Source: Candidatus Omnitrophota bacterium
GTDB taxonomy: Bacteria > Omnitrophota > Gorgyraeia > Gygaellales > Profunditerraquicolaceae
Assembly (NCBI GenBank): GCA_003598025.1
Contig: QZKH01000009.1
Coordinates: 64,896-128,895 of the forward strand
Direction of reading: 5' to 3'
Length of the DNA: 64,000 nucleotides
Shown here: positions 1,094-46,535 of the stretch, piece after piece
Layout: each line of letters starts with the position of its first letter
How positions within the stretch are numbered: the first letter of the stretch is position 1
The notes under the pieces: generated by a model
What the model was told of the DNA's origin: nothing
The model's database searches: none
Seen by the model: the letters and a program-made list of their open reading frames with translations, nothing else
Made by a program: the position numbers and the translations under genes

Positions 1094-2932
1094 TTAACCA
1101 TCAATTATTGCCCTGTCGTCTAATTCGAGCACTATAAATTTGATACAGCGAAATCCCGCCGTTTTCTGGCGGGACGGTAGGACTTGAAAATTGAAATGCT
1201 TTGCCCTGTCGTCTAATCGGTAGGACTTCAGATTCTGGATCTGACTATCTTGGTTCGAGTCCAAGCGGGGCAGCCATTGTTGACAACTATCCGAAACTCC
1301 GGATAGTGATGCAGTGGGAACAAGCGCCTTACAGTCTTCTGTAGGGCGCTTTTCCTTTGTAGAGGCTATTTCGCTAGGGAGGATGCCTTCAAGCGGCTCT
1401 TCGATATACATATTGATTACCAGCCTGTCGCTATAGACGTAAATGTCCTTGATCAGGGCATGTATAAGGCTTTTCTGGGCTTCCGGAGGGGCGTCTTCAA
1501 GGTGCTGTATGGCAAAGTTCATGCTGCGGTATACGAGCTCGCCGGAACAGGCGTTTATGCTGGCAACTCTCTTTTGCGCCTGCAGCTTGTCTATTTCGTC
1601 TTCCAGTTTTGCAATCTCCATTTCCAACTCATTCATTTTGTCTTTATAAGTGGAGCCTTTGGTGACTGTGTTGCCCATGGCTAATTCCAGCAGTTTATTG
1701 GCTTGGAAGCGGAAGCCGTTTAGCTTTGTCTCTCTTTCTTTTAAGTCGGTCTCTATCTTTTCAAGCTTTGCCTGCGACTCAAGCATGGCGTCTCCCAGGG
1801 CCTTTATGATAATGCCCTTGTCCTCAGATGCCCGCCTAAAATAGTCGATTATAGCTTTGTCAAAAGTAGTTGCGGAGATGCGTGTTGCTTTGCATCCCAG
1901 AGCCTGCTTGGAGCGGCTGCACTCATAATAAAAAAACTTTCTTCTGTCTCTACCGCCTGAAAAATTGCAGACCATATGGCTTCCGCAGTCGCCGCATCGG
2001 AGAATACCGGCGAGGAGGTATTCATAGAATCTTTCTTTCTGCACAAAGTTGTGGCCGGGAAGCTTGGCGCTCAATATTTTGTTGGCCCGCTCCCAGAGCT
2101 TCTCATCGACAATCGCCGGGTGATTGCCTTTGTGGTATTCTCCGCTGTATTGAATATAGCCTTTGTAAAAAGGATTTTTTAATATCCTTGAAATAACCTG
2201 CCTGCGCCATTCCTTGCCGTTTAGAGTTTTTAGCCCGCGCCTGTGAAGCTCAAGGCCTACCTGCGTAAGCGACCGGTTATCCGCGGCCATCTCCCAGATG
2301 ATTTTAAGATGCGTAGTTATTTTTTCATCAGGAACAATTTTATGCGGCTGGCGGCCGTTAGGAAGCGGCTCTCCGTCTGGTATAAGCTTATATCCATAAG
2401 GCAGCATCCCGCCGACCCATTTGCCCTGGCGCACTCTGGCAATAGCGGATGCTTTCACGCGCTCGCCGGTGAGCTCCCGCTCAAAGGCTGACAAAATCCC
2501 AAGTATGCCAATTACTACTCTACCTATGGCGGTTGAGCTGTCCAAGTTTTCTCTTACCGAGACGAAATCGATTTCCTTTTCTCTGAATAGATCAATAAGC
2601 CAGTAGAGGTCCCGGGTATTGCGGGTCAAGCGGTCAAGGCGGAAGAAGATTATTCCGTCAAATGGGGCGGTTTCTCTACGCACGCGGTCGATAATCATCT
2701 GGATGCCGGGCCGGTTGAGATCCTTGCCGGAATATCCGTCATCGTCTATTCGGCCTTTTTTGCCTATCTTGGCAAGGTCATATCCAAAAGCGTCCAGCAG
2801 ATTCTTGCAGTGATAGGCCTGGGAATCCAGGGTGGTAAAATCTCCCTGGGCCTGGTCATCAGTAGAGCAGCGGGTATAGATTACATAGCGTTTTTTGTTA
2901 TTTGCATTATTTGTTTTGGCATTCATAATCAT
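1094..2932 (-). CDS. large serine recombinase (resolvase catalytic + recombinase + zinc-ribbon domains); 3' end disrupted because the last 57 codons are antisense of tRNA-Gln and the duplicate fragment
   Basis: N-terminus MIMNAKTNNANNKKRYVIYTRCSTDDQAQGD... (catalytic Ser in YTRCST). About 70% identical to the second recombinase at 23430-25529. Start chosen by alignment with the paralog (MIMKAK). Codons WLP = revcomp of tRNA 3' end GGGCAGCCA (1268-1276). Confidence 0.8.
   Translation of the reverse strand: MIMNAKTNNANNKKRYVIYTRCSTDDQAQGDFTTLDSQAYHCKNLLDAFGYDLAKIGKKGRIDDDGYSGKDLNRPGIQMIIDRVRRETAPFDGIIFFRLDRLTRNTRDLYWLIDLFREKEIDFVSVRENLDSSTAIGRVVIGILGILSAFERELTGERVKASAIARVRQGKWVGGMLPYGYKLIPDGEPLPNGRQPHKIVPDEKITTHLKIIWEMAADNRSLTQVGLELHRRGLKTLNGKEWRRQVISRILKNPFYKGYIQYSGEYHKGNHPAIVDEKLWERANKILSAKLPGHNFVQKERFYEYLLAGILRCGDCGSHMVCNFSGGRDRRKFFYYECSRSKQALGCKATRISATTFDKAIIDYFRRASEDKGIIIKALGDAMLESQAKLEKIETDLKERETKLNGFRFQANKLLELAMGNTVTKGSTYKDKMNELEMEIAKLEDEIDKLQAQKRVASINACSGELVYRSMNFAIQHLEDAPPEAQKSLIHALIKDIYVYSDRLVINMYIEEPLEGILPSEIASTKEKRPTEDCKALVPTASLSGVSDSCQQWLPRLDSNQDSQIQNLKSYRLDDRAKHFNFQVLPSRQKTAGFRCIKFIVLELDDRAIIDG
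1108..1185 (+). repeat. interrupted partial duplicate of the tRNA-Gln 5' half (pseudo-tRNA / att scar)
   Basis: 1108-1124 is identical to tRNA-Gln 1201-1217 (TTGCCCTGTCGTCTAAT). 1175-1185 (CGGTAGGACTT) matches tRNA 1218-1228. The two are separated by a 50-nt insert containing a CCCGCC-N7-GGCGGG hairpin. No T-arm or acceptor 3' strand. Confidence 0.45.
1202..1276 (+). tRNA. tRNA-Gln (anticodon CUG)
   Basis: Manual cloverleaf: acceptor TGCCCTG/CGGGGCA, D-stem GTCT/GGAC, anticodon stem TCAGA/TCTGA, loop TTCTGGA (U33, CTG, G37), T-arm CTTGG-TTCGAGT-CCAAG, discriminator G, encoded CCA 1274-1276. Confidence 0.85.
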
Positions 2933-2963
2933 AGAATTCCTACCACATTTTAATGCAGGCATA

Positions 2964-2994
2964 CGCCAGGCAGAAGATCTCCTTCTGCCTGGCG
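2964..2994. promoter_or_regulatory. perfect 13-bp inverted repeat (CGCCAGGCAGAAG-atctc-CTTCTGCCTGGCG) immediately upstream of recombinase start
   Basis: Read directly; lies between the recombinase start (2932) and the next minus-strand ORF. Confidence 0.4.
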
Positions 2995-3006
2995 GCGCTA
3001 AAACAG

Positions 3007-3330
3007 TTATGCCTGGGCCTTCTGCTTTTTGCCTTTTCCCCAGCCAGCCTTCCATCTGGCCACTGCCCCGGAGACGATCTCGTTGATGCGCTCCTGGGTT
3101 GTGCCTTCCTTGAGGATCTCAACAAGCTCTTCTTTGTTGATTACCCGGAAGTTTTTGATGCCGCGCTCTTTGGCTTTAAGCATCAGCTCATGGCGCGACG
3201 ACTCTTTGGCGGCTGATTTGCCGGCTTCAGGCTCTTTTGTAGCTTCTACCGGCGCGCTGGCTTTTTCAACGAACGGCATGTTCTTTGATGAGGACGTCTT
3301 TAAGAAATTTGCCGAGCTTGGCATGGCCAT
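3007..3330 (-). CDS. small Rho_N/SAP-like nucleic-acid-binding protein (start uncertain)
   Basis: C-terminal half HELMLKAKERGIKNFRVINKEELVEILKEG matches the Rho N-terminal domain consensus (L..LK..A.E.GI.N...M.K.ELI..IL). No SD seen at either candidate start. Overlaps antisense with the 5' end of the rSAM remnant. Confidence 0.4.
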   Translation of the reverse strand: MAMPSSANFLKTSSSKNMPFVEKASAPVEATKEPEAGKSAAKESSRHELMLKAKERGIKNFRVINKEELVEILKEGTTQERINEIVSGAVARWKAGWGKGKKQKAQA

Positions 3331-4129
3331 TCAGGTCAGCTGCGACGGAGATAAAATTACCCAGGAAGAATACCGGCACGGAGACCACGCGCTTATCATT
3401 GAAAATATGAAGAAGATTTTAAAGCTAAAGCCGGATATGAGCGTGCGCATGACTTTCACACCTAAGACAGTAGGCAGGCTGGCTATTAATATCCAGTATC
3501 TTCATGAGCTTGGCGTTGCCAAGATTACACACCATGCGGTGATGGAAGAGGACTGGACAGAAGAAGCAGTCCAGCAGTACCAGTATCAATTAGCTCAGGT
3601 TTATCATTACCGCAGGTACTGCAAAAGGCAGGATATCCCTCTTGAGATCGCTTTCATTGATAAGCCCCTCAAAGTCCTTAACGATGAAATCCCTGCAGAG
3701 AAGGAATACTGCCAGGCAGGCAAAAGCTACATTGCCGTATTAGACAACGGAGATGTTTACCCCTGCCACCGTGCAGCAAGCGCCAGGCTCTTTAAGCTGG
3801 GAAGTATCTTTGACGAGATTCCTTTTATCAGGGGAATCTTTTTAAATATAGACAAGGAATACACCGGCTGCTGGAAAAACTGCAGGCACTCCAGAACCTG
3901 CCACAGCTGCATTATTACGCACTTTAAGGTCAACCAGGAATTAAACGCGCCTTTAGCAAAATACTGCAAGCTCTGCGCTGTGGAAAACAATCAGGCATTA
4001 GGATATCTGCCGGTTGAGTTAGCTGACCGCAGGGAGCGGATGCTTTATAAAATAGGCAATGTCCTGGTGGATGTTGCCAGGCAGAATGAGGAAATCTTAA
4101 GACTGCTCAAGATAAAAGGAGGGGTTTAA
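3278..4129 (+). pseudogene. radical SAM / SPASM-domain maturase-like gene, N-terminally truncated (no CxxxCxxC segment present)
   Basis: STNG...VSCDGDK..EEYRHGDH, then the SPASM Cys pattern CQAGKSYIAVLDNGDVYPCHRAA ... GCWKNCRHSRTCHSC. Sequence upstream of 3266 is antisense of the Rho_N ORF and lacks the Fe-S cluster motif. Confidence 0.55.
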
Positions 4130-4131
4130 CC

Positions 4132-4422
4132 ATGGGCAAAGTTATAAATCACGAGGAGATAACGGTTGAGGATATAGTAAAGAGCTTAAATCCGGCAGTA
4201 TACAATCCGGGCAGCGGCGAGTCAGCTTCTTTTGCGCTTATCCATGCCGAAGGCGGGCCGATGAGATATTTTGTCAACGGCCAAAACCCTACGCCGTCAT
4301 CCGGAGCGCTTTTAGAAGATGGAGACATTGTGGAGCTGCCGTCAATTTATCATATTAAGGATTTTAGGGTGGTTAAGTCAGGAGACGACCCGGGCAAACT
4401 CACCGTAACTTACGAGGCTTGA
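4132..4422 (+). CDS. hypothetical protein (96 aa)
   Basis: ORF starts 3 nt after the rSAM remnant stop; RBS GGAGGGG upstream. Confidence 0.4.
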   Translation: MGKVINHEEITVEDIVKSLNPAVYNPGSGESASFALIHAEGGPMRYFVNGQNPTPSSGALLEDGDIVELPSIYHIKDFRVVKSGDDPGKLTVTYEA

Positions 4423-4437
4423 AAGGAGGCGTTAAAT

Positions 4438-4992
4438 ATGCAGCTGCATCTTAAACACAGAAAGGCAAGCAGAATACTTAAAAGGGCCTATGAGATAAAT
4501 TCCGACGGAGGCCTTCCTAAGACCGGCCAGAGCATGATTTATCAGCCCGGAGACGACGGCTCATACCAGATGGGCTATCCTCTCGGCGGAGAAGCAAGGT
4601 TTATTGACAACGCAGATGGTACGGTAGTCGATTTGGCCACGGGTCTTATGTGGATAAAAAATCCGCAGGAGGCAGGATTAGGTTCTCCTATGTACTGGTA
4701 TGACGCAATCAATGCCTGCGAGAATCTTGACTTTGCCGGACACAACGACTGGAGGCTTCCGAATATAAACGAGCTGATGTCTATTGTGGATCACTCCAGA
4801 TATGACCCGGCATTTGACCCGCTCTTTTTTACGCCGTTTTCGGATACCTGGACTCCTTGCTGGTCCTCAACTTCAAGCGCGTCTTGGATAGACGGCGCGT
4901 GGGCAATGTATCCCTATGACGGCTATAAGACTACCTGGGGAAAACCCTGGGATATGTGTTATGTCAGACCTGTAAGAGGCGGGCAGGCTTAA
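4438..4992 (+). CDS. DUF1566 (Lcl C-terminal domain) protein
   Basis: VVDLATGLMWIKNP...YWYDAINACENLDFAGHNDWRLPNINELMSIV matches the DUF1566 signature (TGLmW...A..C..L.....DWRLP...EL). Confidence 0.6.
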   Translation: MQLHLKHRKASRILKRAYEINSDGGLPKTGQSMIYQPGDDGSYQMGYPLGGEARFIDNADGTVVDLATGLMWIKNPQEAGLGSPMYWYDAINACENLDFAGHNDWRLPNINELMSIVDHSRYDPAFDPLFFTPFSDTWTPCWSSTSSASWIDGAWAMYPYDGYKTTWGKPWDMCYVRPVRGGQA

Positions 4993-5010
4993 GAAACGGA
5001 GGATATAAAA

Positions 5011-5214
5011 ATGGCAGGCGAAAAAATTACTGTTGAATTCAAAGACGGAAAGAAAATAACCAAATACCCCGGAGGGAAGGTTTCCGAGCAGACCCAGGAG
5101 GACCTGGAAAGATACAAAGATTTTCTTACAAGGGAGAGGCAGCGGATTGACCGGCATATCTCTTTAATTGACGATGACCTCAGTCAAATAACGGCAAGCA
5201 AGAAGGCAAAGTGA
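5011..5214 (+). CDS. hypothetical protein (67 aa)
   Basis: ORF with RBS; charged, coiled-coil-like. Confidence 0.3.
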   Translation: MAGEKITVEFKDGKKITKYPGGKVSEQTQEDLERYKDFLTRERQRIDRHISLIDDDLSQITASKKAK

Positions 5215-5217
5215 GCG

Positions 5218-5502
5218 ATGGAAAATAATAAAGGCTGGACAAAATTCATAACGCCGGTACTAGTTACGATTGCCATCTTTATGCTGGGCAATATCACTAT
5301 GCAGCTCAGCCGGCTTGAAGATAGAGTATTCCAGCATCTGGCCAACGACCAGATTCATGCTCCGAGATCTCAATTCGTCTCTAAGGCAGAATTTGACTTG
5401 CACTGCAAATTCTCTGAAAAAGAAAACGGTCAAATCTTGAAGGCAATCGATGACTTGAGAAACGATTTAAAGGTAAAAAGCCGAGATGAAAGAAATCAGT
5501 AA
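5218..5502 (+). CDS. small membrane/coiled-coil protein
   Basis: One TM (FITPVLVTIAIFMLGNI) followed by a coiled coil; same architecture as the 27291-27506 product. Confidence 0.4.
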   Translation: MENNKGWTKFITPVLVTIAIFMLGNITMQLSRLEDRVFQHLANDQIHAPRSQFVSKAEFDLHCKFSEKENGQILKAIDDLRNDLKVKSRDERNQ

Positions 5503-5668
5503 AGTAAGGCTTGAATTTGACCTGCATGAGTATCGGCAGCTTGCTTTAGTTATTCGGGATCACAAGAGTCTGCTTTATAAGTTAAAAATGAATGAGCTGA
5601 TTAAGCAGGGCCTTATAAAAGATCTGAATATTATTGTTGGCATACTGGAAAGAGCCGAGCTTAAATAG
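5486..5668 (+). CDS. hypothetical protein (60 aa)
   Basis: ORF overlapping the previous stop. Confidence 0.3.
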   Translation: MKEISKVRLEFDLHEYRQLALVIRDHKSLLYKLKMNELIKQGLIKDLNIIVGILERAELK

Positions 5669-5688
5669 CTAAAAGGGGAGGTGAAAAC

Positions 5689-5799
5689 ATGAAGGTGCTT
5701 ATAGCTTTTACTCTGGGGAATATCGTCGGCGGATTGGGAATGTTTTTCTATCTTTGGCTGAAAGGCAAGGTGCAGGATGGCGGAAAGCGAAAAATTTAG
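5689..5799 (+). CDS. 36-aa single-TM peptide (MKVLIAFTLGNIVGGLGMFFYLWLKGKVQDGGKRKI)
   Basis: SD AAAGGGGAGGTG; conserved paralog at 27522-27632; overlaps the next gene by 23 nt in both copies. Confidence 0.45.
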   Translation: MKVLIAFTLGNIVGGLGMFFYLWLKGKVQDGGKRKI

Positions 5800-6109
5800 C
5801 CTACTTAAATTCGCTGAGAGCTTTTTTCAGTTTTTGCCGTGGGTTAAGACTTTACGCTACGCAGCCGGTATTGCGCTGATAAGTTTTGTGGGCCTTACGA
5901 TTTATCGGGCATTCTTTATGCCTACGCAGACTACCAAGCAGGTCACTCATATTATTGCTCAGCCTGGCGCCCAGGTGACGGTAGATCAGAAAAAAGAGGA
6001 AAAGAAATCTAAGATTGAAGTCAGACCGTTCGCAGAGGGATATGGTTTTGCTGAATCTGACGACCGCAAGGGTGTAGGCGCTAAGGCCGGTATAAGGGTA
6101 GATTTCTAA
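5777..6109 (+). CDS. 110-aa membrane protein, paralog of 27610-27939
   Basis: MAESEKFSLLKFAESFFQFLPWVKTLRYAAGIALI... versus MVENERFSLLKFAGSFFQFLPWVKTLRYAAGIALI... Confidence 0.5.
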   Translation: MAESEKFSLLKFAESFFQFLPWVKTLRYAAGIALISFVGLTIYRAFFMPTQTTKQVTHIIAQPGAQVTVDQKKEEKKSKIEVRPFAEGYGFAESDDRKGVGAKAGIRVDF

Positions 6110-6308: not shown

Positions 6309-6470
6309 ATGGCTAAAAAAATGAAGAAAACTACCATTGAGATTACCGAAGGCCAATATTTCTATTTAAAAGAAAAATCTCTTCAATTGCAGAAACAAAA
6401 GAAGCGTTACTCAATTGTTTCCATTATCAGGGATTTAATTGAGAATGATCGCAGAAAGCCTGTATTGTAG
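6309..6470 (+). CDS. small RHH/CopG-like protein (53 aa)
   Basis: Extended -10 TGGTATAAT at ~6231-6239; product ...KRYSIVSIIRDLIEN; not in ORF track. Confidence 0.3.
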   Translation: MAKKMKKTTIEITEGQYFYLKEKSLQLQKQKKRYSIVSIIRDLIENDRRKPVL

Positions 6471-6518
6471 CTGGAATCAAAAAATATAAAATAAACAGTC
6501 ATAAGGAGTAGGTTTATT

Positions 6519-7967
6519 ATGGAGCTTGAGATTATTTTATTATGGGTTGCGGTGTTGATATTCGTGAGCGCTGTCTCAAGCAAGCTTTCGGACAGGTTCG
6601 CTATACCTGCTTTGTTGCTATTCTTGGTAATCGGGATTCTCGCCGGATCGGAAGGGATCGGCAGGATTTATTTTGATAATGCGCGGTTAGCTAAATCCAT
6701 CGGAGTCATCGCCCTTATTTTTATCATTTTTTCCGGCGGCCTTGATACTAACTGGAAAGATACTAAGCCGATAGTTTGGCCGGGAATTATTCTTTCCACC
6801 CTAGGAGTTTTGCTGACCGCAGTCATAACAGGTTTTTTTGCCGTATATATCTTTAAATTTTCTCTGCTTCAAGGAATGCTTCTCGGCTCCATTGTTTCCT
6901 CCACTGATGCCGCAGCAGTATTTAGTATCTTAAGGTCAAAACGAATAAGCTTAAAACAGCCCCTGAAGCCATTACTTGAATTTGAATCCGGCAGCAATGA
7001 TCCGATGGCGGTATTTTTGACTGTTGGTTTTCTTACTATCCTGATTGCCAAGAATATGGGTATCGCTGCTTTGATTCCTAGGTTTTTTCTGGACATGGGC
7101 ATGGGCGCGGTTATAGGATATTTGATGGCCAAAGTCATCGTATTTTCCATTAACCGCCTGAAATTGTACTACGAAGGGCTGTATCCGGCCGTGGTTATTT
7201 CTTTGGTCCTTTTGACTTATGTAATCGCTGTTTTCCTGAAAGGTAATGGGATACTGGCGGTGTATGTTGCGGGCCTGATGCTTGGCCAGGCAGACTTTCC
7301 GAATAAGAGGATGATTATAAGATTTCATGACGGCCTGGCATGGCTGATGCAAATCGCGATGTTTATAACATTGGGCCTGCTCGTTTTTCCTTCTCATATC
7401 ATTCCGTTGATAGGACAGGGATTGTTATTGACGTTTCTTCTTATGGCGATTGCCCGGCCTGTCAGTGTATTACTTTGTCTGTTACCGTTTAAAATGAATA
7501 TGCGCAAAAAAGCCATGGTCGCATGGGTTGGCCTAAGGGGTTCGGTTCCGATTATCTTGGCGACATTTCCTTTTATGGCGGGCATCGCGCAGGCGGACAT
7601 TATTTTTAATATTGTCTTCTTTATTGTTATCGCCTCGGTTCTTATCCAGGGGACATCTATTCCGATTGTCGCTAAAATATTGAAACTGGACCTTCCCTGG
7701 CCTAATAAAACGCGTTATCCTATTGAATTTGAAAAAACAGAAGGCATTGATGCTGAATTGACGGATATAATTGTCCCGTATAATTCAGGGGCAGTAGGTA
7801 AGATGATCCGTGATTTGAATGTTCCCGAAAAGTGTCTCATTATGCTTATTTCCAGAAACGATAAATTCATTATTCCTGCCGGACCTACGATTATAGAAGG
7901 CGGTGATGTTTTGCTTGTGCTTGCAAACACAGGAGATCTTTTGGCCTTTCAACAGGAGTTGGCATAG
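6519..7967 (+). CDS. CPA1-family Na+/K+:H+ antiporter (NhaP type) with C-terminal TrkA-C/RCK_C domain
   Basis: About 10 TM segments, FESGSNDPMAVFLTVGF motif, C-terminal ...IIEGGDVLLVLANTGDLLAFQQELA. Confidence 0.8.
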   Translation: MELEIILLWVAVLIFVSAVSSKLSDRFAIPALLLFLVIGILAGSEGIGRIYFDNARLAKSIGVIALIFIIFSGGLDTNWKDTKPIVWPGIILSTLGVLLTAVITGFFAVYIFKFSLLQGMLLGSIVSSTDAAAVFSILRSKRISLKQPLKPLLEFESGSNDPMAVFLTVGFLTILIAKNMGIAALIPRFFLDMGMGAVIGYLMAKVIVFSINRLKLYYEGLYPAVVISLVLLTYVIAVFLKGNGILAVYVAGLMLGQADFPNKRMIIRFHDGLAWLMQIAMFITLGLLVFPSHIIPLIGQGLLLTFLLMAIARPVSVLLCLLPFKMNMRKKAMVAWVGLRGSVPIILATFPFMAGIAQADIIFNIVFFIVIASVLIQGTSIPIVAKILKLDLPWPNKTRYPIEFEKTEGIDAELTDIIVPYNSGAVGKMIRDLNVPEKCLIMLISRNDKFIIPAGPTIIEGGDVLLVLANTGDLLAFQQELA

Positions 7968-8015
7968 TTTAAGAGCAGTAAAAAAGCGTAAGATGTTCTT
8001 AAAAGGTTGAAAAAA

Positions 8016-8357
8016 ATGATAAAAATAAAAAGAATTTACAACATGCCAGCAGGAGACGATGGTTTTAGAATCCTCGTGGATAGACTGTGGCCTAGGGGCG
8101 TGAGTAAAGAAAAGGCAAAAATTAACCTTTGGCTGAAAGACATTGCCCCAAGCGACAGCTTAAGAAAATGGTTTGCCCATGATACAGCAAAATGGGCTGT
8201 ATTTAAACAGAAGTATTTTCTTGAACTCAAGAATAAAAAAGCCCTTATTGGTGAAATTAAGAAGAGAGCGAAAGGCGACGTGACGCTATTATACGCCGCT
8301 AAGGACGAACAACATAATAATGCACAGGCATTAAAAGAATATGTTGAAACGCAATAG
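8016..8357 (+). CDS. DUF488 family protein
   Basis: [52 protein letters not shown]. Confidence 0.65.
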
Positions 8358-8371
8358 TAAAGGAGCATGCT

Positions 8372-8851: not shown

Positions 8852-8864
8852 GCAAGGAGACAAA

Positions 8865-9410: not shown

Positions 9411-9428
9411 AAAAGGAGGACTATTCAT

Positions 9429-9587
9429 ATGGATAAATATCAATGCCGAGCCTGCCCATATATTTATGACCCAGCTGTTGGCGACCCCACACAAGGGATT
9501 AAGCCGGGGACAAAATTCGAGGATTTGCCGGATGATTGGATTTGTCCTGAATGCGGCGTACCTAAGAGCATGTTTGATAAAATTTAA
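9429..9587 (+). CDS. rubredoxin (52 aa)
   Basis: [15 protein letters not shown]...[15 protein letters not shown]; two CxxC pairs; not in ORF track. Confidence 0.8.
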
Positions 9588-9601
9588 AAGGAGATGACAG
9601 C

Positions 9602-10192: not shown

Positions 10193-10309
10193 CTTCCGTT
10201 TCTTCCTAGCGAACAAAAATATTTAGTCTTTCTGCAAGCATTAGTATAGTCTTGGAAATAACGCCCTATTTATTCAAAAACAATTAAAATTTTTAAAGAG
10301 GAGCAGAAG

Positions 10310-10978: not shown

Positions 10979-10980
10979 TT

Positions 10981-12938: not shown

Positions 12939-12989
12939 CTAACAATTGCCCCTGGAAGCAAAACGCCAAGGGGATGAAGGAGGTTAATT

Positions 12990-30957: not shown

Positions 30958-30961
30958 GTGA

Positions 30962-34867: not shown

Positions 34868-34876
34868 ATTAAATAT

Positions 34877-39526: not shown

Positions 39527-39529
39527 GAT

Positions 39530-40525
39530 ATGCTTATTCAAAATCCCATAAATTTTTTATTAATTCCCGTTGCGGCGGGGATTATCTATTATTCTTTACG
39601 CAAGAATAAATCTCCCGGAATCCGGTTTTCTTCGGAGAGGTTTCTAACCATAGGCAGCCCTACTTTTAAAACCCTTTCTAGCCGTTATATATGGGTTTTA
39701 CGCCTATTGGTGTTTGTGTTCCTGGCTCTTGCCTTAGTTAGGTTTCGAGTGCCCATTGAAGAATCAAAGATTCAGACCGAAGGCATTGACATTATACTTT
39801 GCTTGGATACCTCAACCAGTATGCTGGCAGAGGATTTTACTCTGCGAGGCAGGCGGGCAAACCGTTTAGATGTAGTAAAAGATGTGGTGGAAAACTTTAT
39901 TCAGGGAAGGAAAAATGACCGCATCGGCATTGTTGCCTTCGCTGCCCGCGCCTATACCGCAAGCCCCTTAACGCTTGATTACGGCTGGCTGCTTGAGAAC
40001 CTTAAGCGCGTTAAAATCGGCATGATCGAAGACGGCACGGCTATCGGCTCGGGCTTATCAGTTGCCCTCAAGCGGCTGGAAAATACCAAAGCAAAAAGTA
40101 AAATCGTAATTCTTTTAACTGACGGTATAAACAATGCAGGAAAAATCTCGCCTTCTTTGGCAGCCGAGGCTGCTAAGGCTTTAAAGGTGAAAGTGTATAC
40201 TATCGGCGCCGGCACTAAGGGTATGGCGCCGTACCCGATGAAAGACTTCTTTGGCAATACTGTGTATCAGCCGGTAAAAATAGATATTGATGAGGATAGT
40301 CTGATAAATATCGCATCCAAGACAGAAGGCAAATATTTCCGCGCTACAGATACAAAATCATTAAAAGAAATTTATGCCGAAATTGACCATATGGAAAAAA
40401 GCCCTATTGAAGAAAAGGGATATATGGAATACCGGGAATTGTTCCCGATATTTTTAACTATTGCTATGGCGCTCTTGTTATTAGAGGTTTTATTGAGAAA
40501 CACAATTTTACGGAGAATTCCTTAA
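39530..40525 (+). CDS. batA: BatA-like vWA-domain membrane protein
   Basis: Two N-terminal TMs, vWA with MIDAS DTSTSM, C-terminal TM. Confidence 0.75.
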   Translation: MLIQNPINFLLIPVAAGIIYYSLRKNKSPGIRFSSERFLTIGSPTFKTLSSRYIWVLRLLVFVFLALALVRFRVPIEESKIQTEGIDIILCLDTSTSMLAEDFTLRGRRANRLDVVKDVVENFIQGRKNDRIGIVAFAARAYTASPLTLDYGWLLENLKRVKIGMIEDGTAIGSGLSVALKRLENTKAKSKIVILLTDGINNAGKISPSLAAEAAKALKVKVYTIGAGTKGMAPYPMKDFFGNTVYQPVKIDIDEDSLINIASKTEGKYFRATDTKSLKEIYAEIDHMEKSPIEEKGYMEYRELFPIFLTIAMALLLLEVLLRNTILRRIP

Positions 40526-40526
40526 T

Positions 40527-41531
40527 ATGAGATTTGCCAATATGCAAGCAGCTCATCTTTTTTGGTTGATTATAGCCTTGATAGGTTTCTTTTTCTGGGT
40601 AAACGCAAGGAGAAAAAAATCTCTGGAAGCCTTTGCCGATAAAAATCTGTTAGCTACGCTCCTTGCTTCTTTCGATATTCGTAAATACAGATTAAAACAG
40701 GTTTTGATTATCGTTGTTTTCTCATTAGCAGCTTTTTCTTTTATGCAGCCGCAATGGGGGTTTAAGTGGCAGGAGATAAAACGCAAAGGCTTGGATATAT
40801 TGGTAGCGGTAGATGTATCCAAGAGCATGCTTGCAGAGGACATAAAGCCAAATCGCCTGGAACGCACAAAATTGGCATTGGCAGATTTTGTCAAGCACCT
40901 TAAAGGCGACCGCATTGGCCTGATTGCTTTCTCCGGAACCGCTTTTGTGCAATGCCCCCTGACAGTGGATTATGGCGGATTTCTTTTATCTGTAGACGCG
41001 CTTGATATAAATACCATCCCTAAGGGCGGAACCTCAATTTCCAGCGCGATTCGGCAGGCGATGGAAAGTTATGAGGGCGGACTTAAGAAATATAAGGTGT
41101 TGATTATTATTACTGACGGCGAGGATCATGAGGGAGATCCGGTTAAGGCTGCTGAATTGGCTCAAAAAGAAGGCATAAAGATATTTTGCATAGGCATAGG
41201 CACAAACGAGGGCGAGTTGATACCGGTAACTGATGAAAGTGGTGATAAAGCCTTTTTAAAGGATAGAAGCGGAGCGGTGGTCAAGAGCCGCCTTGATGAA
41301 GCAACTCTGCAAAAAATAGCTCTGGCTACGGCGGGGAGTTATGTGCGCGCAAGCGCCAAAGAGTTCGGGTTAGACTTAATTTATAAAGAGAAACTTTCGG
41401 AAATGGAAAAGAGAGAACTTGAGACCAAGATGGCTAAGCAGCATGAGGAGCGTTTTCAGATTCCACTGTCCATTGCTTTCTTTCTTTTGGCAGTCGAATT
41501 TCTCTTAAGCGATAGGAAGAAGGCGTTATGA
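40527..41531 (+). CDS. batB: BatB-like vWA-domain membrane protein
   Basis: vWA MIDAS DVSKSM; same architecture as batA. Confidence 0.75.
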   Translation: MRFANMQAAHLFWLIIALIGFFFWVNARRKKSLEAFADKNLLATLLASFDIRKYRLKQVLIIVVFSLAAFSFMQPQWGFKWQEIKRKGLDILVAVDVSKSMLAEDIKPNRLERTKLALADFVKHLKGDRIGLIAFSGTAFVQCPLTVDYGGFLLSVDALDINTIPKGGTSISSAIRQAMESYEGGLKKYKVLIIITDGEDHEGDPVKAAELAQKEGIKIFCIGIGTNEGELIPVTDESGDKAFLKDRSGAVVKSRLDEATLQKIALATAGSYVRASAKEFGLDLIYKEKLSEMEKRELETKMAKQHEERFQIPLSIAFFLLAVEFLLSDRKKAL

Positions 41532-42379
41532 GTAAAAGTTGCAGGGTAGCTACATTTTTTATTAGCTTGTGTATTTTTGCGGTTGCGAACTTGCCGTGCT
41601 TTGCTGCAACTGATGCTAAGAAAAACGTCAAGGAAGCAAACAGGTTTTACAAACAAGGAAAGCTTGATGAGGCGCTACAGAAATATAATGATGCAAGCGT
41701 AGCCCTTCCTGATTCTGATATCGTAAACTTCAACATGGGGACAGCGTTATATAAAAAAGAAGATTACGAGAAGGCGCAAGATGCCTTTACTAAGGCCTTA
41801 ACCAGCGAAGATAAGAAGCTCGAAGCAGATGCCTTATATAATTTGGGGAATTGCAAATATAAATTGGGTAAGCTTAAAGAAAATACGGATTTATCAACCA
41901 CCGTAGCACTTTTGCGGGAGTCATTGGATTATTATAAAAGAGCGATAGATTTAGACCAGAAAAATACCGATGCGCGTTTTAACCATGAGTTTGTTGAAAG
42001 AGAGCTGAAGGTTTTACTGGATAAATTAAAGCAGCAACAATCTAATACCGATAAACAGAAAGAACAAGAGCAGCAACAGGAGGAACAGAAGCAAGGCACT
42101 TGCCCTACGGGTAAAGAACAGGGTAAGGAAGATAAAGAAAAAGAAGGGTCGGCTCAAGAAAAGGAGCAAAAGCAACAAGAAAAAGAAGGTCAAGAGGGGC
42201 AGTCGCAACAAGAGGAGCAAGCAGCCGCAGAAGAAACACAACAAGAAGAGCAAGGTAAGGAGTTATCAGAAGAAGGGGCACGCGCGCTTTTAGAGCGCTA
42301 TGGGCAAGAAGAAACAACGCCAAATTATGAAGATAGGCGCACCGGAGCCTATGATAGGGAAGTATCGAAGGATTGGTAG
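41528..42379 (+). CDS. BatC-like TPR protein with E/Q/K-rich low-complexity tail
   Basis: TPR repeats (NLGNCKYKLGKL...), long QEQEQQQEEQK tract. Confidence 0.6.
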   Translation: MSKSCRVATFFISLCIFAVANLPCFAATDAKKNVKEANRFYKQGKLDEALQKYNDASVALPDSDIVNFNMGTALYKKEDYEKAQDAFTKALTSEDKKLEADALYNLGNCKYKLGKLKENTDLSTTVALLRESLDYYKRAIDLDQKNTDARFNHEFVERELKVLLDKLKQQQSNTDKQKEQEQQQEEQKQGTCPTGKEQGKEDKEKEGSAQEKEQKQQEKEGQEGQSQQEEQAAAEETQQEEQGKELSEEGARALLERYGQEETTPNYEDRRTGAYDREVSKDW

Positions 42380-42388
42380 ATTAGGATT

Positions 42389-44236
42389 ATGAAGAGGGCA
42401 TTATCTTTTACCTTATTTTTTGCGTTATTTTTAACTTCAGTCGCTCATGCTAGTGATATCCAGCTTGAAGCAACGGTTGACCGCAATAAAATAGCGCTTG
42501 GCGAAGCGCTCCAGCTTAATCTGACTTTTCAGGGAACGCAGAATGTTTCTGCGCCAAGTATAGATAAAATAGAAGGCTTTGATGCGCGCTATCTTGGGCC
42601 TTCTACCATGGTTTCGATTATTAACGGGGCGGTCACAAGTTCCATAACCCACGTTTACACCTTAATTCCTTTAAAGACAGGTACCTTTACCATAGGGCCG
42701 TTTTCCGTGCAAGCTCAAGGGAAAACTCTGACTTCTAAGCCGATAACCGTAGAAGTAGTTTCAGCTCCTACTGGAGGCCAACAATCTGCTCCCGGTCAAG
42801 CCTTACAAGAACCAGCTCCTACAAAAATAGACGCGGAAGAATTAAAGGATAGAATTTTTTTAATCTTGAGCATAGGAAAAAGAAAAGCATATTTAAGTGA
42901 GTTTGTACCGCTAACCGTAAAACTTTATGTAAACCGCTTAGGCGTGCGGGATATTCAGTTCCCCGAAATAGAAACAAACGATTTTTCCATTGAAAAATTT
43001 GGTCAGCCAAAACAGTACCGCGAAGAATTTGGCGGTGTCTTGTATGATGTTATTGAGTTCACGACGAATATGTTTGGAATAAAGCCGGGAGATTTTACTT
43101 TAGGACCGGTAAAATTAAAGTGTAATTTGGTGGTGCGCAGACAAGCTCAAGCGCACCGGCGAACTCCCTTTGATGATGATTTCTTCAACGGGATGTTCAA
43201 TGACGACATTTTTAATGATTTCTTCGGTAGATATGAAGCGTATCCCTTAGAGTTAAAATCCACAGAGATTCCGATTACAGTGTTATCTTTACCGCAAGAA
43301 GGAAAGCCTGAGGGTTTTGATGGAGCATTGGGTAATTTTCAATTAAATGTTGAAGCAATGCCTCTTGAAGTAAAAGCAGGAGATCCTATTGCCTTGAAAA
43401 TGACAATAAAGGGAGAGGGGAATTTTGATAGCGTTAAGGCCCCGCGGTTACAATCCAAAGATGGTTTTAAGGTTTATGACCCACAGGTTAAACAGAATGA
43501 AAACGAGAAAATTTTTGAACAGGTAATTATTCCGGATTCGGAAAACATAACCCATATCCCGCAGATAAATTTCAGTTTCTTTAATACAAAAACAGGACAA
43601 TATGAAGTCTTAACGCATGAACCTATTCCGATAACGGTATTGAAAGCCGATGAGGCTCAAACAAAATTGATAGAATTACCCCAAGCTCAGGTTAAGATCG
43701 CGCAAAAAGAAGAGCTGGGAAGGGATATAATTTACCTTAAAAGCTCGCCTGGCCAATTCAGGAAAATCGGCCGTTATCTTTATCAAAATTTAGGCTTTTG
43801 GCTATTTCAGATATTAAGTCTTATTATATTCTTGGGTATCCTTATTTTTAATCTTAGACAGCAAAGATTAATTACCGATCAACGTTATGCGCGCAGGTTG
43901 CAAGCTCCGGCAAATGCAAAAAAAGGCATAAAAGAAATTGACAGGTTATTGCGGGAAGGTAAAACAGAAGCATTTTTTGACACGCTGTTTAAAACGGTCC
44001 GAGAATACCTGGCTGATAGATTTCATTTGCCCGCAGGCGGCATAACCGCGATTACCATTGAAGAACTAGCCAAAGAAAAAGGTATTGCCCAAGAGACCTT
44101 AGATAAAATAAAGAAAATTTTTGCTGATTGTGATATGGCTAGATACGCGCCCAGCCAATTTGGTCAGAAACAATTAGAAGACATCTTCCAAGACTTGAAA
44201 GAGATTATTGATTATCTGGAGAAGCAAAAGGCATGA
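42389..44236 (+). CDS. BatD-like protein
   Basis: Signal peptide, repeated beta-rich domains, C-terminal TM and cytoplasmic tail. Confidence 0.6.
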   Translation: MKRALSFTLFFALFLTSVAHASDIQLEATVDRNKIALGEALQLNLTFQGTQNVSAPSIDKIEGFDARYLGPSTMVSIINGAVTSSITHVYTLIPLKTGTFTIGPFSVQAQGKTLTSKPITVEVVSAPTGGQQSAPGQALQEPAPTKIDAEELKDRIFLILSIGKRKAYLSEFVPLTVKLYVNRLGVRDIQFPEIETNDFSIEKFGQPKQYREEFGGVLYDVIEFTTNMFGIKPGDFTLGPVKLKCNLVVRRQAQAHRRTPFDDDFFNGMFNDDIFNDFFGRYEAYPLELKSTEIPITVLSLPQEGKPEGFDGALGNFQLNVEAMPLEVKAGDPIALKMTIKGEGNFDSVKAPRLQSKDGFKVYDPQVKQNENEKIFEQVIIPDSENITHIPQINFSFFNTKTGQYEVLTHEPIPITVLKADEAQTKLIELPQAQVKIAQKEELGRDIIYLKSSPGQFRKIGRYLYQNLGFWLFQILSLIIFLGILIFNLRQQRLITDQRYARRLQAPANAKKGIKEIDRLLREGKTEAFFDTLFKTVREYLADRFHLPAGGITAITIEELAKEKGIAQETLDKIKKIFADCDMARYAPSQFGQKQLEDIFQDLKEIIDYLEKQKA

Positions 44237-45003
44237 GAGCCAAAAATATCCGAAATATCTTTATTTTAGCTGCGCTATTCTTACTTCTTTTCTTAGAAGC
44301 AGGATTTGTTTTTGATGATCAGGAAACAGGGGCTTTTAACCGGGCCAATGTTTATTATGAGCAGGGAAATTTTGACGAGGCAATCAAACAATATAAAAGC
44401 ATTGTTGAAGAGGGTCTGGAAAGCGGCAATCTCTATTATAATCTCGGCAATTGTTATTTTAAGAAAGGCAAGCTCGGAGAGGCTATTTTTTACTATGAGA
44501 AGGCTCGCAGACTGATTCCACGGGACAGGGATTTGGAATCTAATTATGAATACGCTTGCTCGTTGATTAAAGGCGGCACTTTCAGTAGCCAGGAAAGCTT
44601 TCCCGCAAGGTTATGGAATAAGCTATTTGAAAAGCTTGCGATTGACGGATTGACTCTCGCACTCAGCATATTTTTTATTTCAATTCTAATTAGCATCTTG
44701 GCGAGTCTTTTCTTTGCGCCGCTTAAAAAACAGGCTTTAATTCTTACTGCCTTTTTGGGATTGTGCTTTGTTGTTGGTCTCGTCGGTCTGAAAGGAAAAA
44801 TTTCTCGCTTAAACAAAGAGGCAATCGTGGTAGTGGAGCAGGCGGATGCCAAATTTGAGCCGATGGAAAAAGCAACAACCTATTTTACTCTCTACGAGGG
44901 TATGAAAGTCGAAGTGGTAGAATCCAGAGATAATTGGCATAAAGTCAAACGCCAGGATAAGAAGAGCGGCTGGGTGCAGTATAGCGCAATCCTTCCCTTT
45001 TAG
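44233..45003 (+). CDS. BatE-like TPR + SH3b protein
   Basis: TPR (YYNLGNCYFKKGKLGEAIFYYEKA), TMs, C-terminal SH3-like WHKVKRQDKKSGWVQYSAI. Confidence 0.55.
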   Translation: MRAKNIRNIFILAALFLLLFLEAGFVFDDQETGAFNRANVYYEQGNFDEAIKQYKSIVEEGLESGNLYYNLGNCYFKKGKLGEAIFYYEKARRLIPRDRDLESNYEYACSLIKGGTFSSQESFPARLWNKLFEKLAIDGLTLALSIFFISILISILASLFFAPLKKQALILTAFLGLCFVVGLVGLKGKISRLNKEAIVVVEQADAKFEPMEKATTYFTLYEGMKVEVVESRDNWHKVKRQDKKSGWVQYSAILPF

Positions 45004-45036: not shown

Positions 45037-45093
45037 TTGACATTTGCACTAAATGTTCATAAAATGTGAACTAATCGTTCACGCATCGTGAAC
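45037..45093 (+). promoter_or_regulatory. promoter (TTGACA) with palindrome GTTCAC-gcatc-GTGAAC (candidate operator of the second MNT/HEPN pair)
   Basis: Read directly. Confidence 0.4.
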
Positions 45094-45111
45094 ACTTATC
45101 CGGAGGCGATA

Positions 45112-45651
45112 ATGGAAAGCATTTTTTCTACAAAGGAACGATTAAAAATCCTAAAAGCAGTTATTTTTAATAAAGCGCCTATCAGCGTTAATGTCATTGC
45201 CGCTCAGCTTAAACTAAGCAAGGGGCTGGTCTCTAAGTACTTTGAAGTTCTGCTAAAAGAAGGCATTGCTAAGAAGTCAAATGGTAAATACCTTATAGTT
45301 GACTCTTCCTTTACAAAGGCAGCCAAGATTTTATTAAATATAATCGGCATTGATGCGGAAATTTTCAAGAAGTTTGACTTTGTGGAGGCTGTTGGCCTTT
45401 ATGGTAGTTGCGCTAAAGGGGAGAACACAGATGATTCTGATGTGGATCTCTGGATAAAGATTAAAAGCGTAAGTGATGAGAAAGCCGCCTCTTTAACTAC
45501 TATAATGAGCAAGAAAATCAAGAATGTTAAGCCGTTATTCTTAACTACCGAGAAGATTGAGAAGATGAAAAAGGATGACATGCTTTTCTATCATTCCTTG
45601 TCATTCGGCTCAATCGTTCTCTACGGAGAAAATAATGCCATTCAATTATAA
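45112..45651 (+). CDS. wHTH + minimal nucleotidyltransferase (MNT) antitoxin-like protein (paralog of 22459)
   Basis: LYGSCAKGENTDDSDVDLWI; SD GGAGG before ATG 45112. Confidence 0.7.
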   Translation: MESIFSTKERLKILKAVIFNKAPISVNVIAAQLKLSKGLVSKYFEVLLKEGIAKKSNGKYLIVDSSFTKAAKILLNIIGIDAEIFKKFDFVEAVGLYGSCAKGENTDDSDVDLWIKIKSVSDEKAASLTTIMSKKIKNVKPLFLTTEKIEKMKKDDMLFYHSLSFGSIVLYGENNAIQL

Positions 45652-46081
45652 CGATTGCATGAGGGAAGGGTTACTGAGGAAAATCCCGCCATCAAAAGAT
45701 AAGGCTGTCCAGTCATTAAAGAAAGCGCAACAGTGGTTAAAAGAAGCGGAGAATTCTCTGGAAGGGAATGCATTCAACTCATCAATTTTGGCTTCTTATA
45801 TGGTAATGTTTCATGCGGCTAGGACTATCCTGTTTTTTGATGGCTTCCGGGAAAAGAGCCATGCCTGCGTAGCAAGATATCTTGAAGAGAAATATGTTAA
45901 AACTGGCAAGCTGGATAAGAAGTGGGTTGAACTATTGGATCACAGCCGGGAAATTAGGCACGATGACCAGTATGACCTTAGTTTTTTCTCAACCAAAGAA
46001 GAAGCGGAGAATGCCTTGAAGTCCGCTAATGACTTCTGGGGTGCTATAGACGGTTTATTTAAGGCGATCTCTTCTAAGTAG
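45635..46081 (+). CDS. HEPN-domain toxin-like protein (paralog of 23010)
   Basis: YNDCMREGL..., FREKSHAC, SREIRHDDQY; 17-nt overlap with the MNT gene. Confidence 0.65.
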   Translation: MPFNYNDCMREGLLRKIPPSKDKAVQSLKKAQQWLKEAENSLEGNAFNSSILASYMVMFHAARTILFFDGFREKSHACVARYLEEKYVKTGKLDKKWVELLDHSREIRHDDQYDLSFFSTKEEAENALKSANDFWGAIDGLFKAISSK

Positions 46082-46109
46082 GGTGAAACAGCATTAAAGG
46101 GGCATGAAA

Positions 46110-46535
46110 CTAAGCCTTTGGAAATAGGCTTTCAAGCGCGTTTCGCCGTTCTTTTTCGGTTTTGAGGCGGGATATCCTTAAAAGCCGTTTGCCGTTGAAT
46201 ATCTTTAGCTTGTCTTGATCCTGGCAGGATTTTATGGTTTCAATGAAGTCCTGGGGTAGGGTGTTAACTATCTTTAAGAGGTGGGCTACCTTGGAGTCTG
46301 AAATTTGCAACTCTTGGCTGGCTCTTGCCCAGGTCATCCTGGTAGGGCTGTTTTCAATAAAGGATTGCAGTTTGAGGCCCTCATAGATGATATTTTGGTA
46401 GATTCTCTTGGGCCGTGCCGGAGGCGCTTCAAACGGCTTGATTAAAGACAATAAAGTGCCCTTTTTGCGGCTTTTATAGAACCTAAGAAGCAGGATAGCC
46501 TCTGTGGTTCGAAAACCGTCTATTGTGGGCAGTAC
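46110..46535 (-). pseudogene. C-terminal fragment (HTH extension, ~140 codons) of a large serine recombinase, beginning exactly at the GGGCAG core
   Basis: VLP-TIDGFRTTEA...LLSLIKP...PRIYQNIIYEGLKL...ISDSKVAHLLKIVNTLPQDFIE... aligns with Rec2 WLP-NVVFRRTAEP...LLSLVDP...PRIYPNTIVEALKI...ISESKLAHLLKIVNKLPPEFVE. No homology upstream of VLP (an in-frame TAA lies 13 codons before). Confidence 0.65.

Follow-up and report, generated by a model that had tools for sequence, protein, structure and literature searches.

The closest described counterparts of the system considered here are the "suicidal" tyrosine integrases of the SSV type (SSV1, pTN3, pT26-2), in which the attachment site of the element, attP, lies within the integrase open reading frame (ORF) and integration into a tRNA gene partitions the gene, its N-terminal portion coming to lie at one end of the element and its C-terminal portion at the other; integrated copies are far more common than intact ones, and N and C parts of different origin form hybrids (PMC8371274, PMC7253208). 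A 2021 review held self-disrupting recombinases to be exclusive to archaea (PMC8371274). Here, we analysed a 64,000-nucleotide stretch of contig QZKH01000009.1 from a Candidatus Omnitrophota bacterium (hereafter, the window), in which a 45-kb island probably consists of two related phage-derived elements with self-splitting serine integrases, inserted head to tail in the 3′ end of a tRNA-Gln(CTG) gene. Full-text literature searches returned no report of a serine-recombinase version of the self-splitting integrase, and the described cases are all tyrosine recombinases, the one from bacteriophage Mx8 included. The same logic operating in a large bacterial serine family, with several hundred members in the databases, contradicts the archaea-only generalisation.

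The SSV-type integrases are archaeal and have the tyrosine recombinase fold (PF16795), and their split separates the catalytic domain, leaving two inactive pseudogenes. By contrast, the family found in the window is bacterial, belongs to the serine class and loses an accessory helix-turn-helix (HTH) domain alone. Judging from domain content and the position of the cut, its behaviour appears to be a variant of the self-partitioning theme that falls outside the SSV family, with neither the tyrosine fold nor inactivation on splitting. The next closest is the IntP/IntX integrase of Myxococcus phage Mx8, which is bacterial, carries attP in the 3′ portion of int and, on integration, acquires a new C terminus rather than being destroyed; this new C terminus alters the properties of the integrase (PMC6070905, citing Tojo 1996 and Magrini 1999). 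A comparable alteration is seen in the window family, where 138 aa are swapped for an antisense-tRNA tail, but this is an analogy between different enzyme classes: the Mx8 protein is a tyrosine integrase, has no known detachable folded domain kept as an orphan ORF, and is not known as a large family.

The canonical large serine integrases (phiC31, Bxb1, A118, phiFC1) share with the window family the Resolvase, Recombinase and Zn_ribbon_recom domains with an embedded coiled coil and, probably, short att sites with imperfect inverted repeats. The sites of such enzymes have a central dinucleotide in common, and the outer motif is ~5 bp nearer to the centre in attB than in attP. In these enzymes, however, attP lies outside the ORF (in phiFC1, the core is 19 bp past the int stop codon), the gene survives integration, most targets are protein-coding genes and a separate recombination directionality factor (RDF) sets directionality, whereas in the window family the crossover falls in the ORF, integration is directed at the 3′ end of a tRNA gene and the protein carries an additional, predicted ParB-like domain. 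The composite arrangement has its parallel in the staphylococcal cassette chromosomes (SCC/SCCmec), in which elements mobilised by Ccr serine recombinases stack head to tail at one site and composites with three or more directly repeated cores excise singly or together. The ccr genes, however, are unsplit, the target is rlmH (orfX) rather than a tRNA gene, and no junction gene is known to arise. Finally, islands of the Islander type also insert into tRNA 3′ ends, regenerate the tRNA with element DNA and form hot spots with variable occupants (PMC4383910). They usually rely on tyrosine integrases and a duplicated tRNA segment, whereas the ends of the island described here share 6–9 bp, as expected for a serine recombinase.

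Recombinase genes and their shared core

At the left end of the island, the minus-strand gene for recombinase 1 reads into the tRNA-Gln(CTG) gene from its 3′ end (Table 1). Its codons 553–555, TGG CTG CCC (W-L-P) on positions 1276–1268, are the reverse complement of the GGGCAG-CCA end of the tRNA. At the right end, an orphan minus-strand fragment reads V-L-P-TIDGFRTTE... and ends at a natural stop; an in-frame stop lies ~22 codons ahead of it, and no recombinase N-terminal part (N-part) was found in the local sequence upstream of this 46535–46110 fragment. The fragment matches the last 140 aa of recombinase 2 (rec2), a paralog of 699 aa located within the island, at 50% identity (E 1e-43). The two outer GGGCAG cores, at 1268–1273 and 46527–46532, are both on the plus strand, in direct orientation, and revcomp(1277..2932) followed by revcomp(46110..46532) gives a single ORF of 693 aa, which aligns with the paralog in one collinear BLASTP segment (393/702 identical, 56%), WLP opposite WLP, and belongs to the same subfamily. 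In all of this, the coordinates, the codons, the orientation and the in-frame join agree with a preliminary description of the locus made from the sequence alone. Given that GGGCAG occurs 25 times on the plus strand of the window, the hexamer alone is not significant, and a chance match is rejected by its context, namely, the frame, the homology and the reconstructed bacterial attachment site, attB (see below).

That description had also recorded a second, intact recombinase inside the island. The inner gene, rec2, indeed has a full-length frame, but it holds a third core, GGGCAGCCA, which had been overlooked and which occupies the homologous W-L-P codons. The three cores are alike in sequence, orientation and codon phase, such that any pair, when joined, produces an in-frame full-length gene.

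From its domain features, the enzyme is classified as a putative large serine recombinase. In rec2, Pfam profiles recognise Resolvase (residues 18–173; PF00239, E 8.6e-31), Recombinase (210–291; PF07508) and Zn_ribbon_recom (307–365; PF13408), with weak coiled-coil-type matches at ~385–460. The same precomputed domains are present in all matches of a search with the joined protein, and the serine nucleophile motif YTRCSTDDQ is found in recombinase 1, rec2 and all homologues. All domains detected with Pfam are those of serine recombinases, and the tyrosine fold of the SSV integrases (Phage_integr_3, PF16795) is not among them. The core falls at residue ~557 of rec2, in a low-complexity linker that follows a catalytic and DNA-binding core of ~520 aa. 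For the C-terminal 138 aa, a confident AlphaFold2 model (pLDDT 83.7) compared with the PDB by Foldseek has ParB, Noc, Spo0J, SopB and VirB as at least the top 30 matches, with TM ~0.5 and probability 1.0 but weak E-values (0.02–0.4); the Pfam HTH_ParB profile matches two distant members of full length, P0057 and P0040, but neither of the window copies. The model thus points to a ParB/Noc-like HTH fold. A search of PDB sequences with the profile of this domain yielded weak matches to ribosomal uS15 alone, which we took as spurious. Accordingly placed, the cut would preserve the whole serine-integrase core on integration and detach an accessory, predicted DNA-binding domain.

Unoccupied sites and the bounds of the insertion

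An exact-match scan of metagenome contigs with the sequence immediately right of the attR core retrieved three contigs (L098, L099 and L100) in which tRNA-Gln(CTG), ending in ...GGGGCAG, is followed directly by TACTTCGACTCGGCCTTCGGCCTCGCTCAGTAC, that is, by window positions 46533–46565. In L099, gltX lies upstream and the tRNA is 97% identical to that of the window; L098 continues for 1.08 kb from the site to tRNA-Leu and a gene for a response regulator with a GGDEF domain. The same right arm (B′), with a compensatory change in its hairpin, is present in a species-representative genome (L034). This arm, a tRNA-Gln trailer, is single-copy in the window, where 45 kb now separate it from the tRNA. 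In the unoccupied sites, the B and B′ arms directly adjoin each other, so the entire 45.3 kb between them was inserted. The segment that the preliminary description had delimited (1277..46532) thus proves to be, from 1277 or, with the CCA, from 1274, a precisely bounded insertion at the tRNA 3′ end. The same contiguity led us to reject the idea that native chromosomal cargo became ringed by small elements.

The CCA triplet of the tRNA gene follows the same divide. It is encoded where the N-part of a large serine recombinase abuts tRNA-Gln (the window, L004, L008, L095 and L101) and missing at all four sites with a B′ arm (L098, L099, L100 and L034), which indicates that the element supplies the CCA and that the crossover falls within GGGCAG. 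The CCA of the window tRNA (1274–1276) is therefore element DNA.

Gene order in relatives tells a similar story. Of 80 Omnitrophota loci retrieved around the gene for the flanking GGDEF regulator, 11 also include tRNA-Gln. The conserved backbone reads tRNA-Glu, FIST protein, histidine kinase, GGDEF regulator, tRNA-Leu, a variable interval, tRNA-Gln, gltX, and the interval between the last two tRNAs measures 306 bp in L027 and 1.2–8.8 kb in the 10 others, against 45 kb in the window. In the GTDB genomes, most relatives are too diverged intergenically (as in L027) for an exact empty-site flank to be found, and it was the metagenome scan alone that found it. On the points that the preliminary description had singled out as able to undo its proposal, we thus found empty sites in relatives, a collinear join and a common subfamily.

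Several features of the site itself deserve mention. The B′ arm is identical across contigs with differing tRNA-Gln sequences, an unusually strong conservation for a trailer. In L050, the tRNA-Gln is apparently unoccupied (GGGGCAG/TTAAC, no CCA), and 32 bp past it begins a block (10938–19906, between tRNA-Leu and tRNA-Gln, without a recombinase) encoding a Na/H exchanger, an OmpR-type regulator, a kinase, a second regulator, DUF5698, a GreA-like protein and MgtE, at 72–86% aa identity to their counterparts in the left half of the island. In L023, a minimal remnant of ~1.1 kb (18000–19169) is bounded by both sites, in the order tRNA-Gln GGGGCAG/CCA..., a C fragment of type C, and ...GTTC GGGCAG/TTAAATAATG.

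A probable tandem of two elements

The third core divides the island, 45,259 bp core to core, into a unit Y of 22,588 bp and a unit X of 22,671 bp with a common layout: recombinase N-part, phage-late module, small ORFs, a conserved ORF of 110 or 109 aa, cargo, a pair of genes for a winged-HTH nucleotidyltransferase (MNT) and a HEPN protein, and a convergent recombinase C-part. The conserved ORF is 68% identical between the units at the protein level and 82% at the DNA level, the latter over a block of ~330 bp (5673–6002 versus 27505–27828). Unit Y accordingly comprises the N-part of recombinase 1 and the C-part of rec2, and unit X comprises the N-part of rec2 and the orphan fragment. Most likely, rec2 is the junction gene of the tandem, in which the core links the N-part of unit X (25529–23865) with the unit Y C-part (23855–23430), so that recombinase 1 pairs with the C-part of rec2, and the N-part of rec2 with the orphan fragment. 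The near-equal lengths of the units, despite their differing gene content, may reflect a packaging constraint or chance.

The pairing is corroborated by L104 and L105, which carry a single island on the same backbone, next to tRNA-Leu, with the MgtE, ThsB (82%) and 249-aa ORF (94–97%) of unit Y. The C fragment at the attR end of this island is 75% identical to the C-part of rec2 and 54% identical to the orphan fragment of the window. Moreover, an unsplit junction with an N end of the recombinase 1 type and a C part of the rec2 type (type B) is known in P0152. Taken together, the parallel units, the third core and the L104/L105 islands suggest that the outer halves come from different genes; the view of the preliminary description that they are two halves of one gene probably does not hold. 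Among the contexts of type-A C fragments (L010, L108, L109), no X-type counterpart to L104 was found, and the neighbours are variable.

Alternatively, one element of ~45 kb, or a preformed heterodimeric circle, could have integrated in a single step through the attP of one gene, in which case the N-part of recombinase 1 and the orphan fragment would be the halves of that gene and rec2 an ordinary second copy. As this scenario predicts, the join keeps the frame and its product is collinear with the paralog, although all N- and C-parts of the family share the core phase, which makes the in-frame join uninformative. Integration in one step dispenses with any reaction between attP and attL or attR, the ~330-bp block at 82% identity could support dimer formation (for example, homologous recombination in the region of the conserved 110-aa ORF could have joined two circles), and the N-type and C-type combination of rec2 exists unsplit in P0056. 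Conversely, the units are complete parallel copies with the same architecture and length, and L104/L105 link the Y cargo to a fragment of the rec2 C type at the attR of a single island. The symmetry of the att sites points the same way: when the attR left arm is paired with that on the right of attM, the outer inverted repeat is perfect over 10 bp (GTGGTTCGAA...TTCGAACCAC) and the overall symmetry, 14, is the highest, as opposed to an outer repeat of 7/10 and an overall symmetry of 11–13 for the attR left arm with the attL right arm; the present rec2 site is the least symmetric combination. We therefore regard integration in one step as unlikely and consider two elements in tandem to be the probable arrangement.

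A merger of alternative occupants of a single tRNA-Gln site from different cells into a false tandem is very improbable. The window indeed comes from a metagenome-assembled contig, the proteins P0011 and P0157 trace to contigs of 140,859 and 140,854 bp, and the contigs of relatives often end inside such elements. Nevertheless, the shared core of 9 bp is far shorter than assembler k-mers, and unique sequence flanks the middle core, the DNA of rec2 being ~69% identical to that of recombinase 1, so that real reads must span the rec2 junction; furthermore, the full-length rec2 protein has been recorded by NCBI, JGI and two other sources, on two contigs, the longest being 140,859 bp.

Several observations weigh against the tandem. 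P0056, the nearest relative of rec2 (74%), likewise carries its type-B C part in an undivided gene, such that the rec2 combination may be natural rather than hybrid, and N–C pairings are promiscuous in general, with one N end occurring with C types A, B and C. The MNT and HEPN proteins of units Y and X are only 30% and 24% identical, respectively, and L050 carries part of the Y cargo beside its apparently unoccupied tRNA-Gln. Canonical serine integrases are not known to recombine attP with attL or attR, and for elements to be inserted one after the other in tandem, the choice of sites must be relaxed, as it is for the SCCmec Ccr recombinases. Neither a circle junction nor an excision product of a single unit was found in three exact-match scans (two for P arms, one for a P′ arm) and one protein-profile scan of IMG/VR viral contigs; the scan with the attL core and P′ arm recovered the attL of one provirus (L101) and no free form. 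In addition, unit Y is damaged, and neither unit has replication or capsid genes.

N–C pairing, traced with the C-domain profile and with rec2 searches, did not discriminate between tandem and single integration, given the promiscuity of pairing and the repetition of the rec2 combination in P0056. When dyad symmetry was used to look for the crossover dinucleotide, the left and right arms disagreed on the centre: identity between the att sites is limited to GGGCAG, the right arms yield no single consistent centre, and the distance from GGTTCGA to the core is 9 nt in the tRNA arm and 14 nt in the P arm.

Damage, selection and signs of transfer

The upstream region of recombinase 1 (2933..3197) is conserved with the prophages L095 and L101, with blastn identity of 87–88% over window positions 3197..1201. 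This homology ends at 3197, a rearrangement breakpoint that appears to be a scar of a deletion or rearrangement adjoining recombinase 1: the radical SAM/SPASM gene at 3029–4129 matches positions 133–377 of 556 in the phrog_1802 profile, its first ~130 being missing. Pfam and PHROGs detect no terminase, portal, capsid or replication genes in either unit, and the phage genes present are a tail-fibre-like gene and small late ORFs, whereas terminase, portal and other such genes are found in the elements of relatives (L004, L095). Together, the damage and the missing replication and capsid genes render the autonomy of the units doubtful, with a possible reliance on rec2 or a helper phage.

Such decay would fit a scenario in which the recombinase pieces are old prophage debris at a tRNA hot spot, the island is fixed and no longer excised, and the in-frame fit merely reflects the conserved core of the family. 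Reduced remnants at the same site in relatives (L023, L025), the absence of the circle junction from the public contigs scanned, and a GC content of the cargo (0.38–0.42) equal to that of the flanks are all in keeping with it. The preliminary description had called for a comparison of GC inside and outside the island; a raised value (0.46–0.49) was found solely at the recombinases and phage-late modules. However, all three recombinase pieces hold open frames, and the ratio of nonsynonymous to synonymous substitutions (dN/dS) is well below 1 in both halves, at 0.07–0.10 between recombinase 1 and its split relatives (N-parts) and 0.27 between the orphan C fragment of the window and another orphan copy. 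These ratios indicate purifying selection on both halves, even among split copies. The promoter-proximal region of recombinase 1 is, moreover, conserved with active-looking prophages.

The cargo, too, is more similar between genomes than the backbone, which argues for recent transfer. Between the window and L104, the 249-aa protein o249 (94–97%) and ThsB (82%) exceed the GGDEF regulator (66%), the kinase (48%) and the FIST protein (41%); between the window and L050, the Na/H exchanger (84%), the OmpR-type regulator (86%) and MgtE (83%) exceed backbone proteins at 71%, 55% and 44% (the backbone kinase HK497 standing at 55%). Overall, that the island is an inert relic seems to us somewhat unlikely, and this scenario disputes only the present activity of the two elements, not their origin.

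The integrase family across genomes

A search with the joined protein returned 461 relatives, largely from Omnitrophota, with named matches also from Auribacterota and Elusimicrobiales. We inspected the C-terminal ends of 140 N-part homologues. As in recombinase 1, 60 of these run past W-x-x into translation of an antisense tRNA T-arm, with a tail of the kind xDSNx (for example, WLPRVDSNHN or WLPRMDSNHDSQIQNLKSYRLD), and 34 end within 3 residues of the core, so that at least 94/140 stop at the core; the C domain is partial in 3 and of full length (682–700 aa) in 5. The C-domain profile identified 133 proteins, mostly orphan ORFs of 110–235 aa, with more than 100 orphan C fragments. Run against 1.84 billion representatives, it matched 123 clusters, with only two longer than 222 aa. 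Throughout the family, the Trp codon is invariant, TGG being the reverse complement of the tRNA CCA. In phage and plasmid records, the best match is ≤31% identical, and the C domain is never covered.

Close relatives of recombinase 1, P0001 (93%) and P0002 (81%), are split at the same gltX/tRNA-Gln site in true prophages, the elements of which carry sigma-like genes, a ParB-methylase, a GpA terminase and portal genes. Sister sub-families end in WGG or WRRGRDSNP instead of WLP (P0021, P0029, P0101, P0243–P0260 and others) and may insert into other tRNA genes by the same CCA/Trp arrangement. In L010 (~9900–10342; P0144), a C fragment is preceded by the core and ~10 codons of the N-part end (the P′ arm), then by unrelated sequence, as if deletion had removed the N-part and left the att site intact. 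A full-length member with its attP intact, P0010 of Auribacterota (L103, 10001–12076), resides inside a chromosome-sized contig of 637 kb, next to genes for a Prim-Pol/D5 primase, an SNF2 helicase and restriction proteins.

The many "truncated" recombinases and small "hypothetical" orphan ORFs of Omnitrophota are thereby explained, and the W-L-P/CCA rule locates both ends of an island.

Proposed mechanism

The comparison of occupied and unoccupied sites and of family members indicates that attP lies inside the integrase ORF, that integration at the 3′ end of tRNA-Gln restores the tRNA with the CCA of the element and partitions the gene, and that N and C modules are reassorted in nature. In both elements, attP would sit in the linker between the catalytic and DNA-binding core and the C-terminal HTH domain. 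On integration, the N-part would be left at attL with its promoter, gaining the antisense-tRNA tail, and the HTH domain would be stranded at attR. A second integration beside the first would create the intact junction gene, rec2, from the N-part of X and the C-part of Y. Recombination between any two of the cores could then release Y, X or both, restoring a full-length gene and permitting N and C modules to be swapped. Stacking in tandem would require either a relaxed choice of partners, like that of the Ccr recombinases, or a dimer intermediate. We infer this order of events, and a protein that still recombines these sites, from the arrangement of the window.

As regards function, the long isoform would perform integration, and excision would be performed or blocked by the short isoform, perhaps acting with an RDF or the orphan HTH protein. 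The integration state would thus be written into the structure of the enzyme itself, with loss and regain of the HTH domain as a switch for directionality or regulation. It is possible, though we put it forward tentatively, that this is the first bacterial serine-integrase family that rewrites its own gene, existing as a long ParB-HTH isoform when free and as a short isoform, with or without an orphan HTH protein, when integrated, with the isoform switch setting directionality or lysogenic regulation and tandem cores shuffling N and C modules together with cargo. If so, the switch would replace, or add to, a separate RDF, and tandem cores would reassort modules among elements of Omnitrophota and neighbouring phyla. 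The idea takes a different form here than in previously described systems, in that the cut removes an accessory DNA-binding domain and the enzyme core stays whole, suggesting a natural control by which integrase activity is tied to the integration state. Serine integrases act on short sites in simple assays, and such a control would bear on integrase engineering, in which directionality is now controlled by adding or fusing an RDF (PMC5737554).

Features and cargo of the island

The features of the window, with the junctions predicted for the products of integration and excision, are collected in Table 1.

Table 1. Coordinates of the island, its two probable units and its flanks, and predicted att and chromosomal junctions (a slash separates the joined parts)
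Feature	Position	Strand	Description and basis
tRNA-Gln(CTG)	1202..1276	+	Integration target; ARAGORN
Recombinase 1 read-through tail	1094..1267	-	Antisense to tRNA-Gln and its upstream region; stop at 1094
attL core	1268..1276	+	GGGCAG plus CCA; minus strand gives W-L-P codons of recombinase 1
Recombinase 1 N-part	1268..2932	-	555 codons; large serine recombinase core complete (resolvase, recombinase, zinc-ribbon/coiled-coil), plus linker up to core
Unit Y	~1274-23861		Probable left element
Unit Y left (phage-late) module	3029..6109	+	5′-truncated radical SAM/SPASM gene, 96-aa ORF, Lcl_C protein, small coiled-coil and transmembrane ORFs, 110-aa ORF (5777-6109); Pfam, PHROGs
Unit Y cargo	6310..22257	+	Na/H exchanger, rubrerythrin, hemerythrin, DUF6448, two-component system, PhoU, two GreA-like genes, MgtE, ThsB-TIR and 249-aa partner, two major facilitator superfamily transporters; Pfam
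Unit Y right arm	22459..23444	+	Winged-HTH MNT and HEPN pair; convergent with recombinase C-part; Pfam
Recombinase 2 (rec2)	23430..25529	-	Intact, 699 aa
Middle core (attM)	23856..23864	+	GGGCAGCCA; W-L-P codons of rec2
Unit X	~23862-46532		Probable right element
Unit X left (phage-late) module	25587..27939	+	508-aa tail-fibre-like protein, 54-aa and 71-aa ORFs, 109-aa ORF (27610-27939)
Unit X cargo	28145..45003	+	MerR, three hsp20, groES/groEL, PilZ, acyltransferase, MoxR-DUF58-BatA/B/C/D operon; Pfam
Unit X right arm	45088..46081	+	Winged-HTH MNT and HEPN pair; Pfam
Orphan recombinase C fragment	46110..46535	-	138 codons after L-P; predicted ParB-like HTH; zero internal stops
attR core	46527..46532	+	GGGCAG
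B′ arm of attB	46533..46565	+	tRNA-Gln trailer with GGCC-TTCG-GGCC hairpin
tRNA-Leu(GAG)	46754..46837	+	First backbone gene outside island; ARAGORN; synteny in ~60 Omnitrophota loci
Predicted attB			...GAGTCCAAGCGGGGCAG/TACTTCGACTCGG
Predicted attP of X			...CCGTCTATTGTGGGCAG/CCACTCTGGACG
Predicted attP of Y			...GACAACATTGGGCAG/CCATTGTTGACAAC
Predicted junction of 45-kb circle			...CCGTCTATTGTGGGCAG/CCATTGTTGACAAC
Predicted chromosome junction after Y loss			...CCAAGCGGGGCAG/CCACTCTGGACG
Predicted chromosome junction after X loss			...GACAACATTGGGCAG/TACTTCGACTCGG

The groESL, hsp20, bat, mgtE and regulatory genes that the preliminary description had placed in the island are all borne out by Pfam matches in the cargo. 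Thus, what these elements transport in this uncultured phylum includes genes for chaperonins, small heat-shock proteins, ion transporters and defence, along with the Bat operon. The TIR-domain ThsB-like protein and its 249-aa partner, which has no Pfam match, are encoded at 17918–19193 and recur in L104 (18146–19418) and L105 (82% and 94–97% identity, respectively), where the pair stands beside restriction-modification genes and genes of a cyclic-oligonucleotide-based antiphage signalling system (CBASS; SMODS and ThiF); this neighbourhood indicates that the elements carry defence cargo. In unit X, a MerR-family regulator, three hsp20 genes and groES/groEL are clustered at 28145–32599, within an integrative element.

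The convergent MNT/HEPN pair stands ahead of the recombinase C-part in each unit. In L001, a Gp49/HTH toxin-antitoxin pair occupies the equivalent spot, after the C-part within the element, and in L109 one is found on the other side of the C fragment, upstream of it. Finally, nucleotides 1–16 and 17–27 of tRNA-Gln are duplicated upstream of the real gene, at 1109–1124 and 1175–1185, the two repeats being split by a 50-nt insert with a CCCGCC...GGCGGG hairpin; this region, partly kept in L025, may be the relic of an older event at tRNA-Gln.

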